Notes under the pieces: model-generated
The model's database searches: none
The model's input: the letters and a program-made list of their open reading frames with translations, nothing else
What the model was told of the DNA's origin: nothing
DNA from: Shigella phage KRT47
DNA: 64,000 nt
Strand: one strand, 5' to 3'
Sequence record: MN781580
Program-made: the position numbers and the translations under genes
In this document: positions 23,215 to 29,449 of the stretch, piece after piece
How the letters are laid out: the number at the start of each line of letters is the position of its first letter
How positions within the stretch are numbered: the stretch's first letter is position 1

Positions 23215-23218
23215 CAAT

Positions 23219-23236
23219 GGGGACCGAAAGGTCCCC
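23219..23236. terminator. bidirectional terminator hairpin GGGGACC-GAAA-GGTCCCC between gene 54 and minus-strand ORF
   Basis: 7-bp stem with GNRA loop, T run downstream on + strand, between convergent genes. Confidence 0.65.
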
Positions 23237-23242
23237 ATATTT

Positions 23243-23533
23243 TTATTTACGGAATGAAATAAAAGCAGCAACTGAAGCAACTAAACTGTCTTCAATATAA
23301 ACTTCAATTTTTACCGGAGCTTCTGACTCAAATTTACCTGTTACTACACCTTGGAAAATGCTTTCAGTCTGCTGTGGCTTTGAAAAATTTTCAGAAGGAA
23401 AAATTCCGAACTTTTTATCTGTTCCAAAAATTTTGATAAATTCATCATAAACTGCTTCATTAAAAGCATTATCAGCAGGAATAACGCCTTCAACTACAAG
23501 TTCTTGACCTAAAAAGCGCAAAGAAGATTTCAT
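23243..23533 (-). CDS. hypothetical protein (alt-distal small ORF)
   Basis: 96 aa ORF, ATG at 23531-23533 with GAGGA SD inside the 54-bp repeat. Confidence 0.6.
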   Translation of the reverse strand: MKSSLRFLGQELVVEGVIPADNAFNEAVYDEFIKIFGTDKKFGIFPSENFSKPQQTESIFQGVVTGKFESEAPVKIEVYIEDSLVASVAAFISFRK

Positions 23534-23540
23534 TTTGTGT

Positions 23541-23594
23541 TCCTCATGTTATGTCAGTAAGACTACTGTAACACAACACGAGGGACTTGTAAAC
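23541..23594 (-). repeat. 54-bp perfect direct repeat, copy A (early promoter plus translation-initiation cassette)
   Basis: Identical to 39407..39460; minus-strand sense GTTTAC-N18-TACAGT then GAGGA SD. Confidence 0.85.
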
Positions 23595-25651
23595 TACATC
23601 TTGAACTTTTTAGACATTCCGTTGATGTTAACCAAAGAAGCCAAGATTTGAGAAACTTCGTTTTCCTCTTCTTTTGATTCTTCTACAAGGAATTGATTAA
23701 ACCCAGCCATTGGACGAACTTCACCAGTTTCCATTAGATGATCGCCATCATATACCGATTCTTCTAATTGTTCAGAAGGAGGAACGATTGTGCCTTCGAT
23801 TAGATACTTATTATAAGCAGTTTCTTTCATCATGTACGTGCTAACTTTATTAATCTTCAGCAAAATTCCACGCGGTAGAATAACTTCAGCTTCTGATGGA
23901 AATCCTGATAAATGACCTGGAACGATAACTTTAATTCGCTCAGCTCCTTTTATTACCATACCTACGCTAGTTTCAGCATCTTCATTCGCATAAGCAGAAT
24001 GACTGCCCATATGCATTAAATCTTCAGCATCAACAGAACCTTCTCCTTCACCAGAAAATACTGCACCGGAATCATCTAGAGTCATATAGTTTTTACCATG
24101 CTCACCGAAGATATTTGGTTTAAGCGATGTTGATACGAAGTTCTTGAAATAAAACATTTTATTTTCAATATTATGACGTAAAGTTTTAAAGGTAACTTCT
24201 TGTCCACGATAAAGCGTAGTTCCTGGAGGAAGAACTGATCCTTTGGCAAAGGCAGAATCCAGCGTCTCGATGTGTTTAATAGCTCGTTCCATGTATTCTT
24301 CACGGGTAGAATCTGGTTTACCCAAGAGGAACGAGTTCATTTCAACATATGAATCTGCACAATAATCTTCAATTACATCAGACTCAGCCTGAGTTAATCC
24401 TTTTGGAGTTACTTCGGTGCTTGCATATTCATATGCCTGAGCAGCAGATTCATTAATCAATTTATAAATGCCATTCATGACAAATTGAATAATAGCTACC
24501 TTTTCGTCTGGCGTGGCTTTAGAACCTTTAACTAAATCATTGATAATTTTCTTAATAACATCAAAGCTATTAGAAATATTAATGTCAGCGAGATCGCTCA
24601 AAATTTTATCGGTTTTATAATCAAAGAATTCTTTATTCTTTAAATATTCTTGAGAACCTTGATATGTTATATCGCTCTGCAGCTTGATAGATGGATCACG
24701 TAAACGTGCATGGGCCAATGCAATATGATTTCGGAAGCTTTCTAGTTCATAATCGTTAGATTTAAAACGAGAAGCACTTCTCATACCACCGATAGCTCCT
24801 TTGCTGAAGTTTGAACCAATCTGGATAACGCCAGAGTTCATTGGTCCTTCTGCTTTATATACCGGAACTTTAGATTCAAACTCTTGATATTTCTTAGCGG
24901 CGAAGCTATCACCCTGAAGTGAAGCATCGACAGTAGAATATTGAGCTTGTGCTGCCAATCGACGACTAATTTTAGTTTTCTGAATAACAGCTTGATCCGT
25001 GCGCTTATCATTTTCTAGAGCAATAGAAGCGGCAACAGCAACAGCTTTAGGAACAGCATTACCTGTTTTAACGTCTACATAAACATCACCAACCTTTGAT
25101 TCAACTTTTGTGAATAACTCAGTTGAAATAGGAGGTACACCTGGAATGTCTTCTAAATTAGCATTTTTACGATAAACCATAATATATGCATACTTTTTAT
25201 CATAGTCCCAGATTTCCTTTAAAAGAACATATCGACCTGCTCCTTTAGTACGTACTAAACGGTCAGCAATAACTTGCATTTGACGAGCAGCGCCATTTGT
25301 TTTACTTTTTAGTACGCGGAATAGGCATGCGTCAATTTTATACTGTTTCATTGTTTGAAGAGCAGTATCAAAAACCGCATTAATGACACCAATTGGATTT
25401 CCACCCAAGTTTTTAAGTTTAACTAATGATAGTTTCTCATTAACACCTATCATTACGATATGCATCATTTTATCGCCTGGCTTAACGTTTTTATTTGTAT
25501 CACCGCCAGAGGTGTATGTACAAAATCTAAATCCAGGAAGCACACTTTCTTCACCGGCTTGAATAGCAAAAATTTGAGGTATTTTATGCTTAGGATTTAA
25601 GTTAACAACCGGCGCCGAAGCGCCGTCAAATAATTCTGTAATAAGTTCCAT
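23594..25651 (-). CDS. Alt-family ADP-ribosyltransferase paralogue
   Basis: 685 aa; N-terminus MELITELFD and C-terminal R / STS / ExE motifs (YRGQ, FVSTSL, EAEVILPRG) shared with the adjacent paralogue; middle region diverged. Confidence 0.8.
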   Translation of the reverse strand: MELITELFDGASAPVVNLNPKHKIPQIFAIQAGEESVLPGFRFCTYTSGGDTNKNVKPGDKMMHIVMIGVNEKLSLVKLKNLGGNPIGVINAVFDTALQTMKQYKIDACLFRVLKSKTNGAARQMQVIADRLVRTKGAGRYVLLKEIWDYDKKYAYIMVYRKNANLEDIPGVPPISTELFTKVESKVGDVYVDVKTGNAVPKAVAVAASIALENDKRTDQAVIQKTKISRRLAAQAQYSTVDASLQGDSFAAKKYQEFESKVPVYKAEGPMNSGVIQIGSNFSKGAIGGMRSASRFKSNDYELESFRNHIALAHARLRDPSIKLQSDITYQGSQEYLKNKEFFDYKTDKILSDLADINISNSFDVIKKIINDLVKGSKATPDEKVAIIQFVMNGIYKLINESAAQAYEYASTEVTPKGLTQAESDVIEDYCADSYVEMNSFLLGKPDSTREEYMERAIKHIETLDSAFAKGSVLPPGTTLYRGQEVTFKTLRHNIENKMFYFKNFVSTSLKPNIFGEHGKNYMTLDDSGAVFSGEGEGSVDAEDLMHMGSHSAYANEDAETSVGMVIKGAERIKVIVPGHLSGFPSEAEVILPRGILLKINKVSTYMMKETAYNKYLIEGTIVPPSEQLEESVYDGDHLMETGEVRPMAGFNQFLVEESKEEENEVSQILASLVNINGMSKKFKM

Positions 25652-25654
25652 GAT

Positions 25655-27751
25655 TTATCCTTGAACGAACTTGTAAGGCATGTTTGCAATATCTATGCAA
25701 GACGCAATAATTCCAAGAGATGATTCTACTTTTTGTTTAACATTTGATGAAACAAATGATGCAAAGTCAACTCTGTCTTCTATTTCAATATCACCTGTCA
25801 TTGCAACTACTTCACCAGTTTCCATTAGACGGTCACCGTCATAAATTACTGATTCGGTGAGTTCTTCCGTAGTCATAACTTCAGCTTGAATGAGTTTTGT
25901 ATTATTAGATGTTGTTCCGTCATTATTAGAAGCATCAGTTATTTTATTAACTTTGACCATCAATCCTCGTGGTAGAATAACTTCAGCTTCTGTTGCTATT
26001 CCGAGACTTCCTGGATATACAACATTAACTTTATGAGCTCCATCAATTGCCCATCCTATTTGAACTTTAACGTATTCAGGATTTTCTTTATACGCTCTTA
26101 TTTCGTTTGGATTAATAGTTATTCCTTCTTCATTTTTATCAACTGTCAATTCATTACGAGCTTCTGGTTCTAAAAGACCAATACCAGCATGTGTAATTCC
26201 AAAACGTCCAAAAATGATAGGAGTTAAAGAAGTAGATACAAAATTTCTGAAATAGAACACTTTATTTTTAACTAGTGCTTCGTATATAGGAGCAGTCATG
26301 CTTTGAGCACGATAAACTGTAATGCCTTCTGGTATACGGTCACCATTTTCAAAAGCTGAATCTAAGTTATTTATAGCAGATTCAATTTCTTTTTCACTCA
26401 TTACATCATATCGTTCTGGATTGTAACGACCCAAAAGAAGATTATTGATGTCAGTATATCCTGAACCACAATACTCTCTAATGCCGCGCTTTTGTGATGG
26501 AGTATATTTAGAACCATCACGGGCAATAGTAATATCAATCATTGGACCTGCACCAATTCCAGAAAAGCTGTAAATCATTCTTTTGAGGAATTTAGTTTTT
26601 GCTGCGTTCCAGGAATTTTTAGTCATTTCTTCCCAGACTTCATCTGGCTGTCCTTTACGGGTTTTATTATGTTTATCAAGCCAATTATCTTTATATTCTT
26701 CAAAGAATTGATTAACAGCTGCTGCGTATTTCTCTAAACATTTTATTGAAGTAGTTGGTTCATTTTTAATCGCATTAAGAATTACATCTTTAATTTTTTC
26801 AGAAACTTCATTAACCTCACTTTTTGAAAAGAATTTATAGTCATAATGAAGTTCATCTGCAGTTCCTTCAGCAATAATTTTTGCTGCTTTAGTTTTAGAA
26901 GCCAATGAATTAATTCCAAGTTTCATTTCTTCTGCTTCGGGAATTAAAGGAGCGGTAGCAGGTTTATTGAAATTAGCTGCGGTAGATTCATACTTCTGGA
27001 ATAATTCACTTTCAAATCTAGAAGATTCTAATGATTGACTTTGTGCAATTGCTCTACGGGAAATTTTAACTTTAACGATTACAGCTTGGTCAGAACGTTT
27101 ATCATTTTCTTGCGCAATAGATGCAGCAATTGCCTCATTTTTAGTTACTTGAGCTCCAGTATCTTTATTGATATAAACATCACCGACCTTCGATTCAACT
27201 TTAGTAAAGAGCTCGGTACTAATTTCCGGAACTCCTGGAATGTCTTCTAGTGATACATTTTTGCGATGTATAAGAATATATGCATACTTTTTATCGTAAT
27301 CCCAGAGTTCCTTAAGAAGGACGTATCTGCCACCTGAACGACTGCGGATAAGTCTATCAGCAATAAGTTGAATTTGACGAGCTTGACCAGCAGTTTTAGA
27401 CTTAAGAATACGGAGCATACAGGCATCAATTTTATACTGACGCATCGTTTGCATTGCAACAGTAAAAACTGAATTGATGTAATTAATTGGGCTTGGACCG
27501 AGACCTTTTAATTTAGCAATTGAACCTTTAGCAGTTAATGTAAAAGGAACAATATGCATCATTTTATCGCCCATCTTTAAATCGCGATTAGTATCACCTC
27601 CAGATGTATAAGTACATAAACGAAAACCTGGTTGTTCAATTGCGTCATCAACATGAACTGAAAAAATTTGCGGTATTTTCTTCTTTGGATTTAAGTTTGT
27701 AATCGGAAGAGTAGTATCTTCGTCAAATAATTCTGTAATGAGTTCCATCAT
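25655..27751 (-). CDS. alt: Alt ADP-ribosyltransferase (head-packaged, RNA polymerase-modifying)
   Basis: 698 aa; R / STS / ExE motifs (YRAQ, FVSTSL, EAEVILPRG); lies on the ligase side as T4 alt does; which copy is orthologous to T4 alt is not certain. Confidence 0.75.
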   Translation of the reverse strand: MMELITELFDEDTTLPITNLNPKKKIPQIFSVHVDDAIEQPGFRLCTYTSGGDTNRDLKMGDKMMHIVPFTLTAKGSIAKLKGLGPSPINYINSVFTVAMQTMRQYKIDACMLRILKSKTAGQARQIQLIADRLIRSRSGGRYVLLKELWDYDKKYAYILIHRKNVSLEDIPGVPEISTELFTKVESKVGDVYINKDTGAQVTKNEAIAASIAQENDKRSDQAVIVKVKISRRAIAQSQSLESSRFESELFQKYESTAANFNKPATAPLIPEAEEMKLGINSLASKTKAAKIIAEGTADELHYDYKFFSKSEVNEVSEKIKDVILNAIKNEPTTSIKCLEKYAAAVNQFFEEYKDNWLDKHNKTRKGQPDEVWEEMTKNSWNAAKTKFLKRMIYSFSGIGAGPMIDITIARDGSKYTPSQKRGIREYCGSGYTDINNLLLGRYNPERYDVMSEKEIESAINNLDSAFENGDRIPEGITVYRAQSMTAPIYEALVKNKVFYFRNFVSTSLTPIIFGRFGITHAGIGLLEPEARNELTVDKNEEGITINPNEIRAYKENPEYVKVQIGWAIDGAHKVNVVYPGSLGIATEAEVILPRGLMVKVNKITDASNNDGTTSNNTKLIQAEVMTTEELTESVIYDGDRLMETGEVVAMTGDIEIEDRVDFASFVSSNVKQKVESSLGIIASCIDIANMPYKFVQG

Positions 27752-27771: not shown

Positions 27772-27779
27772 TATTTATA
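27772..27779 (-). promoter_or_regulatory. T4-type late promoter TATAAATA (minus strand) upstream of alt
   Basis: Reverse complement of TATTTATA, about 20 nt upstream of alt start. Confidence 0.55.
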
Positions 27780-27786
27780 AAATTAA

Positions 27787-27800
27787 AGGCCCGAAGGCCT
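27787..27800 (-). terminator. hairpin AGGCC-UUCG-GGCCU (minus-strand sense) upstream of alt late promoter
   Basis: GC stem with UUCG loop between small ORF stop and alt promoter. Confidence 0.45.
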
Positions 27801-27989
27801 TTAATAATCTATTGGTAAGAGAGTACGATATATTTCAAACTTTGGACCTTTTTCATAGGCATCAAATGTTTCTGTGAATTTATTATAAGCATATGCATCT
27901 ATAAATTCAATCATAATTTGTGATACAGAAGTAGAAACATCTCCACCTTCTTTTTGAGCAACGACAATTGTTTCTAAGTAAGCTTTCAT
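27801..27989 (-). CDS. hypothetical small protein between ligase and alt
   Basis: 62 aa ORF, start overlaps ligase stop. Confidence 0.5.
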   Translation of the reverse strand: MKAYLETIVVAQKEGGDVSTSVSQIMIEFIDAYAYNKFTETFDAYEKGPKFEIYRTLLPIDY

Positions 27990-29449
27990 AGACCAGTTAC
28001 CTCATGAAAATCACCAAATACATCCTCGAATGTATTAGCTTTAGTTTTATCTTCACGTAAACGAATCGCAATTGGAAGAAATAATTTTACGTAATCAGTG
28101 CGGCCATCAGATTTTAGCCAACCGTTGCATTCGCACTCTAGAATTTTTCCAATATAATAATTTTGGTTTTCCATAATGCGAGTACGGTCAAGTTCATGTG
28201 ATTTTACACCGGCTTTATCTTTTAAGCCTGAACCAGCATTTACTTTAATTTTTCCACACTCTGATTCAAGAATAAATCCACCTGCTTTAGTAGGGTCTTT
28301 ACGGTGAGGATAAATTCCTACAATTTTTAAATCAACATCAATTACTTCTTTAAATTTATAGAGATTTTTTGAACGAGCATTTTCCCACAATCCATCGGTA
28401 TTTTTGAGAATAATACCTTCAAGACCTTGGTCAATATACTTTTTATAAATTACCTTAGCTTCATCTAGGTTATTTACTACCTGGTTTTCAATTAAAATTA
28501 CTTTATCATATCCTGATGTCATTTGTTCTAGTTTAGAAAAACGTACATCATATTTTAAACGAAACGCCGGAAGACCGTATATTTCTACCAACGGGACATA
28601 ATCCCAGACCTGAAACTTCATGCATTTGGCTTCTTTTTCGGAAATGGTTCCTTTTAAGGATTTATTGGCGATTCCATTAGAAGCAGTACGAGATTCCGCT
28701 ACTTCGGCGAATTCTTTAGCTTTACTAATTTCAGGATAAGCATCAAAAAGAAAATCTAGGCCTTCTGGTTCCTTTTTAACTTGCTCATGGTATACCAATT
28801 CGCCATCAATTAACACACCTTCTGGATGAATCTGGCGGGCTTCAGCAGTCATTTTGATTAATTCTTCCTTAAGAAGATCTAATCCTAGATATTCATTACC
28901 AGCTCGTGATAAAAGACGAACATCATCTAATTCATCGCCTCGGACTTCAGCAAAACACCGGGCTCCATCTGCTTTTAACTGCGCAAAGGCTGGAAACTTG
29001 ATATTCTTACTAATGCCCTTTTCATCATAAGAACTTGCCAGCATTTGAGGTTGTTCAGGAATTAAACCTGGCCAAACTTTGTTTGCAATAGATACTGAAG
29101 CACCGCATTCAAGGTCTCGCATCATCACTCGACGCAAAACTTCAACATCATCCTTTTTACCATCAGTGATATATCCAGTTAATTCCTCAATTGCAGCATT
29201 TCCAGTCAATTTCCGAGTAGCTAACGTGAATTCAATGAAATCAAGCATATCGGTAATGGTCAGCATTCCAAAACTCTGGGTAGCAATACCAGGTTTAGGC
29301 CATTTCTTGATATAATACTGTAACCCACGAGAATAAGTCAGACGATATACTCGTTTAAGCAATTCATTATCTTTATTCTTTTCAAGAATTGCTTGCTTCT
29401 GCTTAGTTGATCCAATAGATGCTATTTCATTCAGAATTTTAAGAATCAT
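27986..29449 (-). CDS. 30: ATP-dependent DNA ligase gp30
   Basis: 487 aa; recognised as near-identical to T4 DNA ligase; adenylation motif KADGAR. Confidence 0.97.
   Translation of the reverse strand: MILKILNEIASIGSTKQKQAILEKNKDNELLKRVYRLTYSRGLQYYIKKWPKPGIATQSFGMLTITDMLDFIEFTLATRKLTGNAAIEELTGYITDGKKDDVEVLRRVMMRDLECGASVSIANKVWPGLIPEQPQMLASSYDEKGISKNIKFPAFAQLKADGARCFAEVRGDELDDVRLLSRAGNEYLGLDLLKEELIKMTAEARQIHPEGVLIDGELVYHEQVKKEPEGLDFLFDAYPEISKAKEFAEVAESRTASNGIANKSLKGTISEKEAKCMKFQVWDYVPLVEIYGLPAFRLKYDVRFSKLEQMTSGYDKVILIENQVVNNLDEAKVIYKKYIDQGLEGIILKNTDGLWENARSKNLYKFKEVIDVDLKIVGIYPHRKDPTKAGGFILESECGKIKVNAGSGLKDKAGVKSHELDRTRIMENQNYYIGKILECECNGWLKSDGRTDYVKLFLPIAIRLREDKTKANTFEDVFGDFHEVTGL

Follow-up and report, generated by a model that had tools for sequence, protein, structure and literature searches.

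We examined the alt locus in a window of 64,000 nucleotides, the whole stretch of Shigella phage KRT47 DNA (record MN781580) that was analysed. A preliminary description of this DNA had reported two adjacent ORFs of 685 aa and 698 aa, and both exist as described, as alt copy A (altA) and alt copy B (altB), on the minus strand with a 3-nt spacer between them (Table 1). With gene 30/alt.1 on one side and alt.-3/gene 54 on the other, on the late strand downstream of a late promoter, they occupy the position characteristic of the family. Read from its first ATG, the copy A ORF covers 25655-27751 (-) and encodes 698 aa. The second ATG at 27748, giving 697 aa, is the likelier start, because it is the one used in T4, T2, T6 and Shigella phage A2, and because its distance to a GAGG Shine-Dalgarno is 5 nt, compared to only 2 nt for the first ATG. 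The tandem pair is not new: it is annotated in T2 (LC348380), T6 (MH550421) and about 400 other phage records, including Shigella phage A2, Shfl2, ime09, JS98 and VR5, and the duplication of alt has been discussed in papers from 2006 (PMC1524935), 2014 (PMC4177764) and 2026 (PMC13600099). These annotated pairs have the same two genes in the same order with the same 3-nt spacing, with nothing essential different, and the KRT47 pair, as a further member of the group, is 96-98.6% identical in DNA to the Tequatrovirus tandem pairs.

Table 1. Features of the alt locus of phage KRT47 (positions in the window) and layout of the two proteins (in residues).
Feature	Position	Strand	Remarks
GC-rich hairpin aaaggccttcgggccttt, then aatttt	27785..27802	-	read from the sequence; not listed by the simple terminator scan
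T4-type late promoter box TATAAATA	27772..27779	-	upstream of copy A; sequence read directly and pattern search
alt copy A	25655..27748	-	697 aa; positional counterpart of T4 alt
Copy A catalytic Arg480 (YRAQ)	26309..26311	-	aligns with CDTa YR; invariant column
Copy A S505-T-S507	26228..26236	-	motif search and alignment
Copy A E587-A-E589 (ExE)	25982..25990	-	second Glu corresponds to T4 Alt E577
altA/altB junction	25652..25663	-	reads ...caAGGAtaaATCatg
alt copy B	23594..25651	-	685 aa; full-length form of T4 alt.-1 + alt.-2
Upstream 9-bp repeat CTAAAAAGT	25304..25312	-	left end of the segment missing in T4
Copy B catalytic Arg482 (YRGQ)	24206..24208	-	invariant column
Copy B S507-T-S509	24125..24133	-	motif search and alignment
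Copy B E587-A-E589 (ExE)	23885..23893	-	motif search and alignment
Downstream 9-bp repeat CTAAAAAGT	23605..23613	-	in the final codons of copy B; right end of the segment missing in T4
alt.-3 homologue (DUF5498)	23243..23533	-	last gene of the cluster on the minus strand
Bidirectional hairpin terminator	23217..23238	.	between gene 54 (plus) and alt.-3 (minus); terminator scan
Layout of copy A			N-propeptide 1-6 (ITE-6 site); N domain ~7-232; helical middle 233-421 (A type); ART domain 422-632; LTE-632 cleavage motif; C-propeptide 633-697
Layout of copy B			N-propeptide 1-6; N domain ~7-231; helical middle 232-425 (B type); ART domain 426-631; LEE-631 cleavage motif; C-propeptide 632-685

The late promoter said to precede only the upstream copy was confirmed as TATAAATA on the minus strand, and no separate promoter was seen between the genes for copy B. 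A pattern search found 17 TATAAATA sites in the window, compared to 8.9 expected by chance. One of them lies inside copy A, at 26375-26368 and 717 nt upstream of copy B, where it is encoded by the codons Ala-Ile-Asn-Asn. It could serve as copy B's own promoter but, since about half of the sites in the window are expected by chance, it is probably a chance occurrence. At the junction, an AAGGA Shine-Dalgarno overlaps the last codons and the TAA stop of copy A and is followed, after the 3 nt, by the ATG of copy B, and the terminator scan predicted no terminator between the two copies or anywhere before 23217-23238. The position of this Shine-Dalgarno within the end of copy A, together with the 3-nt spacer, suggests that altA and altB are co-transcribed and translationally coupled. 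The hairpin at 23217-23238 is the likely end of the alt transcription unit. On the other side, the hairpin aaaggccttcgggccttt overlaps with the alt.1 homologue at its stop codon and is placed a short way upstream of the late promoter, which is why it looks like a candidate terminator of the gene 30/alt.1 transcript.

Catalytic residues, processing motifs and family relations

T4 Alt (gpAlt) is an NAD-arginine ADP-ribosyltransferase; each head contains about 40 copies of it, which are injected together with the DNA. Both KRT47 proteins match PF03496 ADPrib_exo_Tox (copy A, E 1.9e-37; copy B, E 3e-20) and, over their entire length, PHROG 802 'Alt-like RNA polymerase ADP-ribosyltransferase' (copy A residues 1-697, E 4.6e-273; copy B residues 1-685, E 1e-255), while PF26846 Tevenvirinae_ADPRT is precomputed for the clusters P0001 (99%-identical) and P0120. 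The R / STS / ExE triad, which the preliminary description had seen in both proteins, is intact in copy A and copy B on alignment and forms invariant columns in the family alignments of both. T4 Alt is inactivated by the E577A substitution (PMC11404850), and its gp21 cleavage sites are ITE-6 and LTE-619 (PMC5694885). Motifs for gp21 cleavage are found at the equivalent positions, ITE-6 and LTE-632 in copy A and ITE-6 and LEE-631 in copy B, in each case as a sequence motif only. The N-terminal domain of about 230 residues, which had been taken for the head-packaging region, is at most a candidate for this role; published work attributes capsid targeting to short propeptides, of which T4 Alt sheds 6 N-terminal and 63 C-terminal residues (PMC5694885, PMC9026906).

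The AlphaFold2 models (mean pLDDT 73 and 76) have an identical domain order in the two proteins, with the ART fold of copy B predicted with good confidence. A sequence search of solved structures, among which no Alt structure is deposited, gave no match for copy B and only weak CDTa and Iota Ia matches for copy A. Sequence identity of the Alt copies to Vis, C3bot, VIP2, Iota Ia, CDTa, CPILE-a and Certhrax is 16-22%. Unlike the C3-like and binary toxins, Alt has no secretion or pore-binding domain; it has a phage-specific N domain and is delivered by DNA ejection. Neither copy has the binary-toxin arrangement, in which two ART-fold domains stand in tandem and the N-terminal one docks to a pore-forming B component. 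ModA and ModB of T4 are early enzymes of about 200 residues that are not packaged and lack the N domain, the middle region and the propeptides. Both ORFs of the pair, in contrast, have 685-697 aa with N and middle domains and stand behind a late promoter, and by length, domains and promoter they are set apart from ModA and ModB, neither of which is in the window. Like Alt, ModA and ModB are R-S-E enzymes of the Alt/VIP2 clade (PMC5512222).

A profile of the Alt N domain retrieves Alt-like proteins only, in 73 clusters among 1.84 billion representatives. We considered the N domain as a general carrier of non-ART effectors, which it mostly is not, as all 65 full-length representatives have the N + middle + ART layout. 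As a separate observation, a few distant, shorter or longer relatives have no Pfam ART match, and some of these carry degenerate ART motifs on inspection.

Among close relatives, dN/dS is 0.04-0.10 for the two genes and 0.05-0.08 for copy B, indicating purifying selection, and copy B is intact, with 685 aa and at least 95% identity, in about 396 phage records. Because of these values and this conservation, both copies are, judged from their sequences, functional genes. Copy B might instead be a paralogue that is inactive or in decay, or have a purely structural role in the head core, given that it has decayed in T4, PD112 and FL44 and that many records label it only 'hypothetical protein'. The intact ORF in so many records, the low dN/dS, the invariance of R, STS and ExE across the aligned family and the confidently predicted ART fold make this very improbable. 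In the searched literature, we found no experiment on copy B and no virion proteomics for a phage with both copies.

Divergence of the two copies and age of the A/B split

Copy A and copy B are 40% identical overall (E 3e-157, pairwise BLASTP), and the identity differs strongly between domains. The N-termini, which had been called almost identical, are identical only in MELITELFD, with residues 1-232 sharing 68% identity in protein and 67% in DNA. A recent gene conversion between the N domains is ruled out by this DNA identity, by third codon positions that are 54% identical and by a longest exact run of 21 nt; any homogenisation must be old, because the third positions agree so little. Between the middle regions, neither sequence nor profile comparison detects any similarity (hhalign probability 0.5% for shallow and 6% for deeper profiles). 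The claim of unrelated central regions is thus upheld as to the lack of similarity, but the stretch concerned measures only about 150-190 residues (roughly 270-420) and not about 250. As both middles are predicted to be helical and are of similar length, they could still have arisen by extreme divergence from one ancestor; the agreement of secondary structure in the AlphaFold models, 63% in register compared to 51-71% when shifted, is uninformative on homology. The ART domains are 36% identical, i.e., the catalytic domain has strongly diverged too.

Comparison with other T-even genomes, which the preliminary description had proposed, gave the same layout in T2, T6, JS98 and VR5, with the same A-then-B order at the same genomic position in the two Dhakavirus genomes (JS98 and VR5). 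In the middle, catalytic and tail regions, copies at the same position in different genera resemble each other more closely than A and B of one genome do; for the ART domain, identity across genera is 55-82% for A-A and 55% for B-B, and only 32-39% for A-B. At the level of these identities, the comparison shows that the A/B split is ancient, older than the Tequatrovirus-Dhakavirus divergence. The N domain gives the opposite picture, with 65-68% identity between A and B within one genome and 42-46% between same-position copies across genera. Taken by domain, these values show that the N domain tracks the phage lineage, whereas the middle+ART body tracks the type, A or B, and moves between phages. 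The N-domain pattern may have more than one cause, with gene conversion, N-domain replacement and parallel co-evolution with a lineage-specific partner all possible.

Among 65 diverse family members, of which 33 could be classified, the middle type matched the ART type in 32 (A-type 13/13, B-type 19/20), and neither mixed combination, A-type middle with B-type ART domain or B-type middle with A-type ART domain, was seen. Since the middle type goes with the catalytic-domain type, what differs between the types is the entire body beyond residue ~235. The preliminary description had proposed a duplicated injected effector with a swapped middle. The duplicated pair for an ADP-ribosyltransferase that is presumably head-packaged and injected stands, with the catalytic residues kept in both copies, but the middle as an independently swapped module does not, given its linkage to the ART type and the low ART identity. 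A recent duplication, in which only the central target-recognition module was replaced and the catalytic domain was left shared, would account for central regions without detectable similarity, for the lack of any blastn match across the copy A middle even to T4 alt and for chimeras that show recombination within alt genes. We nevertheless regard it as improbable, since it leaves unexplained the ART domains that are only 36% identical, the linked middle and ART types without a mixed protein, and the same A and B types at the same positions in another genus; a common ancestor of the two helical middles would also speak against it.

Copy A resembles T4 Alt in place, late promoter, R/STS/ExE residues and ITE-6 and LTE motifs, and is mosaic relative to it, with 99% identity in the N domain, 32% in the middle, 64% in the ART domain and 95% in the C-terminal tail. 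The ART domain of T4 Alt shares 81% identity with that of copy A from Dhakavirus VR5, compared to the 64% for the copy A studied here, which is a different allele whose type is nearer to JS98 copy A than that of T4 Alt. Copy B has the domain order and motifs of T4 Alt, but is 40-42% identical to it overall, with a middle that cannot be aligned. Natural single-gene chimeras, with an A-type N domain and a B-type body, stand alone between alt.1 and alt.-3; they come from short-read metagenome assemblies and may be assembly artefacts.

Loss of copy B in T4 and the proposed role of the pair

A segment of 1,699 bp, lying between the two 9-bp direct repeats CTAAAAAGT, is absent from T4, where alt.-1 and alt.-2 represent only the first ~115 codons of copy B after this deletion and a 1-nt frameshift. 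The sequences at the junction show that T4 lost altB by a microhomology-mediated 1.7-kb deletion. The T6 record describes copy B as an 'apparent insertion in alt.-2', a reading that we reject, as the junction analysis instead shows a deletion in T4. T4 is unusual among T-even phages in having deleted its second alt copy, and the window holds the normal, complete alt locus. Copy B is also decayed or absent in PD112 and FL44. As the T4 alt gene itself is non-essential and T4 grows without copy B, any benefit of copy B must be conditional.

We consider it probable that this is a complete T-even alt locus encoding two injected ADP-ribosyltransferases of old, separate lineages. The two late genes would be transcribed together from the TATAAATA promoter at 27779-27772 and, with a 3-nt spacer and a Shine-Dalgarno inside the altA end, would probably be translationally coupled. 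Each product is predicted to have a 6-residue propeptide ending in ITE, an alpha/beta N domain of ~225 residues, an all-helical middle of ~190 residues, a C3/VIP2-like R-S-ExE ART domain, an L-x-E motif and a C-terminal propeptide of 54-65 residues. By analogy to T4 Alt, both proteins would become part of the prohead core, lose their two ends to the gp21 protease and be injected together with the DNA; at the very start of infection, they would then modify arginines of host proteins by ADP-ribosylation. Most likely, altA and altB modify different, perhaps overlapping, sets of host proteins, because their middle and catalytic regions form two old, separately conserved lineages. The two copies may alternatively be redundant, sharing substrates such as Arg265 of RNA polymerase alpha, with the second gene providing dose or backup. 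The common architecture, ExE (arginine-type) motif, promoter and processing motifs are consistent with this, as is the survival of T4, PD112 and FL44 without copy B. However, each type is kept distinct across genera under strong purifying selection, A and B differ at 64% of the ART-domain positions and entirely in the adjacent helical region, and a second gene that served dose alone should have been homogenised or lost, not kept in about 400 genomes, so that redundancy seems unlikely.

It is about evenly balanced whether, beyond this, copy B is a functionally separate injected effector with host targets of its own, in an alt locus resembling those of polymorphic toxins, where a lineage-bound delivery domain (the N domain and the propeptides) would be combined with A or B middle+ART bodies that are exchangeable between phage genera. 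If this were true, what has been learned from T4 about ADP-ribosylation at injection would cover half of the natural T-even repertoire, as T4 deleted copy B. T4 lacks an enzyme gene that T2, T6 and most wild relatives carry, and the list of T4 Alt targets may therefore understate how the host is modified within the first seconds of infection. The two cryptic ORFs of T4, alt.-1 and alt.-2, are explained as the deletion remnant of copy B and not as an insertion site. The alt locus also provides a clean natural experiment on the diversification of an injected enzyme, with conserved delivery parts and with catalytic bodies that vary and pass from phage to phage.

The alt locus of KRT47

The window comes from a Tequatrovirus (T4-like) genome, whose alt locus is 98.6% identical to that of Shigella phage A2 and ~96% identical to those of T2 and T6. 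The plus strand carries genes 29, 48 and 54, and a convergent minus-strand cluster runs from gene 30 through the alt.1 homologue, copy A (the upstream alt gene, counterpart of T4 alt by position) and copy B (the downstream one) to the alt.-3 homologue. The two Alt proteins share 40% identity (BLASTP, E 3e-157). Both match PF03496 (E 1.9e-37 for copy A and 3e-20 for copy B) and are covered end to end by the Alt PHROG, which confirms the tandem pair of full-length Alt-family ORFs proposed in the preliminary description. The catalytic triad that it assigned to both is also intact, with R480, STS505-507 and E587-A-E589 in copy A and R482, STS507-509 and E587-A-E589 in copy B; these R / STS / ExE columns do not vary among 15 diverse members of the family. 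The second Glu of ExE corresponds to T4 Alt E577, whose change to Ala abolishes activity (PMC11404850). Comparison with close relatives gave dN/dS values of 0.04-0.10 (copy A) and 0.05-0.08 (copy B), and ~396 records contain copy B with an identity of 95% or higher; copy B is a maintained gene and is not decaying.

Features of the alt locus and its flanks in the KRT47 window
Feature	Position	Strand	Remarks
Gene 30 (DNA ligase)	27986-29449	minus	
alt.1 homologue	27801-27989	minus	62 aa; between ligase gene and alt; Pfam PF24647 'Phage_blade', E 7.5e-29
T4-type late promoter box, TATAAATA	27779-27772	minus	just downstream of a GC-rich hairpin
alt copy A	25655-27751 or 25655-27748	minus	end depends on start codon
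Second TATAAATA	26375-26368	minus	inside copy A, codons Ala-Ile-Asn-Asn; 717 nt upstream of copy B
alt copy B	23594-25651	minus	685 aa
9-bp direct repeat, CTAAAAAGT	25312-25304 and 23613-23605		T4 junction falls here
Early-like promoter	23565-23593	minus	
alt.-3 homologue	23243-23533	minus	
Predicted bidirectional hairpin terminator	23217-23238		perfect 9-bp stem, T-runs on both sides; between convergent gene 54 and alt.-3

The placement of a GAGG Shine-Dalgarno motif favours the second ATG (27748) as the start of copy A, giving 697 aa as in T4, T2, T6 and A2. The hairpin immediately ahead of the late promoter of alt overlaps the stop codon of the alt.1 homologue. Only 3 nt separate the copy A TAA from the copy B ATG, with an AAGGA inside the end of copy A, and no terminator was predicted from the alt genes down to the hairpin between alt.-3 and gene 54. 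In the simplest reading, one late transcript would carry both copies, which would be translationally coupled. The second TATAAATA could be an internal late promoter but is probably a chance match; the window holds 17 such sites, compared to 8.9 expected. Directly 3′ of the copy B stop and upstream of the alt.-3 homologue, there is a sigma-70 / T4-early-like promoter (GTTTACA, 17-nt spacer, TG-extended TACAGT/TATAGT), so that alt.-3 may be transcribed early from a promoter of its own as well as by late read-through.

The unit that differs between the copies

A sliding-window comparison, together with a table of identities by domain, set the domain limits (copy B numbering). Identity between the copies is 68% in the N domain (residues 1-232), 17%, which is noise level, in the middle (~240-415), 36% in the ADP-ribosyltransferase (ART) domain (420-625) and 42% in the C-terminal tail (628-end). 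The AlphaFold2 models of the two copies (mean pLDDT 73.4 and 76.3) have a common layout of alpha/beta N domain, all-helical middle, ART domain and low-confidence tail.

The middles had been described as unrelated and as a separately swapped module. Profile-profile comparison gave a probability of 0.5% with shallow profiles and of 6% (E 0.006, C-terminal half only) with deeper ones, for which 13 and 20 diverse representatives were used. Likeness and matching secondary structure persist to residue ~265-285, so that the truly non-alignable stretch is only ~130-150 residues. Both middles are ~72-75% helical and of similar length, and the match of their helix patterns in the models was not above shifted controls, thus supporting neither a common fold nor a replacement of the middle. 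B-type middles are linked to the majority of the other family members, Alts of other genera among them (P0013 and P0014, one of the two named for Salmonella phage KM16, as well as P0017), whereas the A-type middle, that of T4 Alt included, forms a narrower, separate group. Among 65 full-length representatives, an A-type middle goes with an A-like ART domain in 13 of 13 cases and a B-type middle with a B-like one in 19 of 20. Since middle type tracks ART type, the middle is not an independent module, and the unit that differs is the entire body after the N domain.

Three distant relatives have the Alt N domain and different downstream regions: P0183 (541 aa), which has no Pfam ART match, and P0185 (786 aa) have an extra ~200-residue region after it in common, and the far longer P0182 (1142 aa) has only degenerate ART-like motifs.

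In T4 Alt, gp21 protease cleavage at ITE-6 and LTE-619 removes 6 and 63 residues (PMC5694885; PMC9026906). Such motifs occur at both ends of copy A (ITE-6, LTE-632) and copy B (ITE-6, LEE-631), placing both propeptides among the best-conserved segments of the pair, and would fit the incorporation of both copies into the prohead and their processing.

Age of the pair and mosaicism

The same A-then-B order is found at the same genomic position in Dhakavirus JS98 and VR5. Across genera, ART identity is 55-82% for A to A and 55% for B to B, with 42-46% in the N domain for both, compared to 32-39% (ART) and 65-68% (N domain) for A to B within one genome; the middle and tail follow the ART pattern. 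The N domain thus tracks phage lineage and the body tracks A/B type, the bodies recording an old duplication. The N-domain pattern could come from old homogenisation, from replacement of the N domain or from co-evolution with a lineage-specific partner; a recent origin is excluded by the third codon positions, of which only 54% are identical between the two N domains. The preliminary description was wrong to imply a recent event.

Within the genus, copy A too is a mosaic: it is 99% identical to T4 Alt in the N domain and 95% in the tail but 32% in the middle and 64% in the ART domain. The T4 Alt ART domain shares 81% identity with the one in VR5 copy A. At the DNA level, the window aligns with T4 at 95.5% identity as far as 26942; alignment is then lost until 26512, beyond which identity is 80%. 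Every combination of A allele and B state is found: window-type A with full B (this window, A2, T2, T6), T4-type A with full B (Shigella phage sb2), T4-type A with a B remnant (T4, PD112) and window-type A with a B remnant (FL44). Single chimeric alt genes (P0005 and P0007) occur on two metagenome contigs (L011 4001-6055 and L010 4001-6061), with an A-type N domain, reaching residue ~195 on one contig and ~225 on the second, joined to a B-type body; on L011, no alt gene other than the chimera lies between alt.1 and alt.-3. Unequal recombination between the paralogues would give such an arrangement, provided that the assemblies are sound and the chimeras are not artefacts.

Deletion of copy B in T4 and earlier descriptions

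T4 alt.-1 (61 aa) and alt.-2 (67 aa) correspond to copy B codons 1-55 and 62-115 (~97% DNA identity), and the remainder of copy B is missing from T4. The junction falls at the copies of CTAAAAAGT, which makes the deletion 1,699 bp, and a 1-nt loss in an A-run divides the remnant into two ORFs; FL44 shares the deletion but not the frameshift and retains a 128-aa ORF. Full-length copy B is present in the classical phages T6 (L009 6302-8359, MH550421) and T2 (L008 5747-7804, LC348380), where its only label is 'hypothetical protein'. In the T6 entry it is called an 'apparent insertion in alt.-2', a reading contradicted by the repeat-flanked junction, which points to deletion in T4. T4 is the exception, having lost most of copy B.

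The tandem alt pair is already known and annotated. T4 alt.-1 and alt.-2 were recognised as paralogous duplications of alt, and a full-length duplicate was reported in phage 44RR (Nolan et al. 2006, PMC1524935); alt duplications were listed for Ac42, JS98 and Bp7 (Jin et al. 2014, PMC4177764); a 2026 paper on a Tequatrovirus described two Alt paralogues with 43% identity and speculated that they had diverged in function (PMC13600099). The annotation 'Alt-like ... (x2)' or alt_1/alt_2 appears in hundreds of GenBank records, and no experiments on copy B were found in the literature searched. Added here are the junction of the T4 deletion, the contrast between an N domain that follows lineage and a body that follows type, and the way in which middle and ART types vary together; these are refinements rather than a new kind of system. 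In summary, the proposed duplicated injected effector with diverged target-facing parts is retained, without the separately swapped middle or the recent event, and it is reasonable to infer that the copy A and copy B enzymes would have separate substrates.
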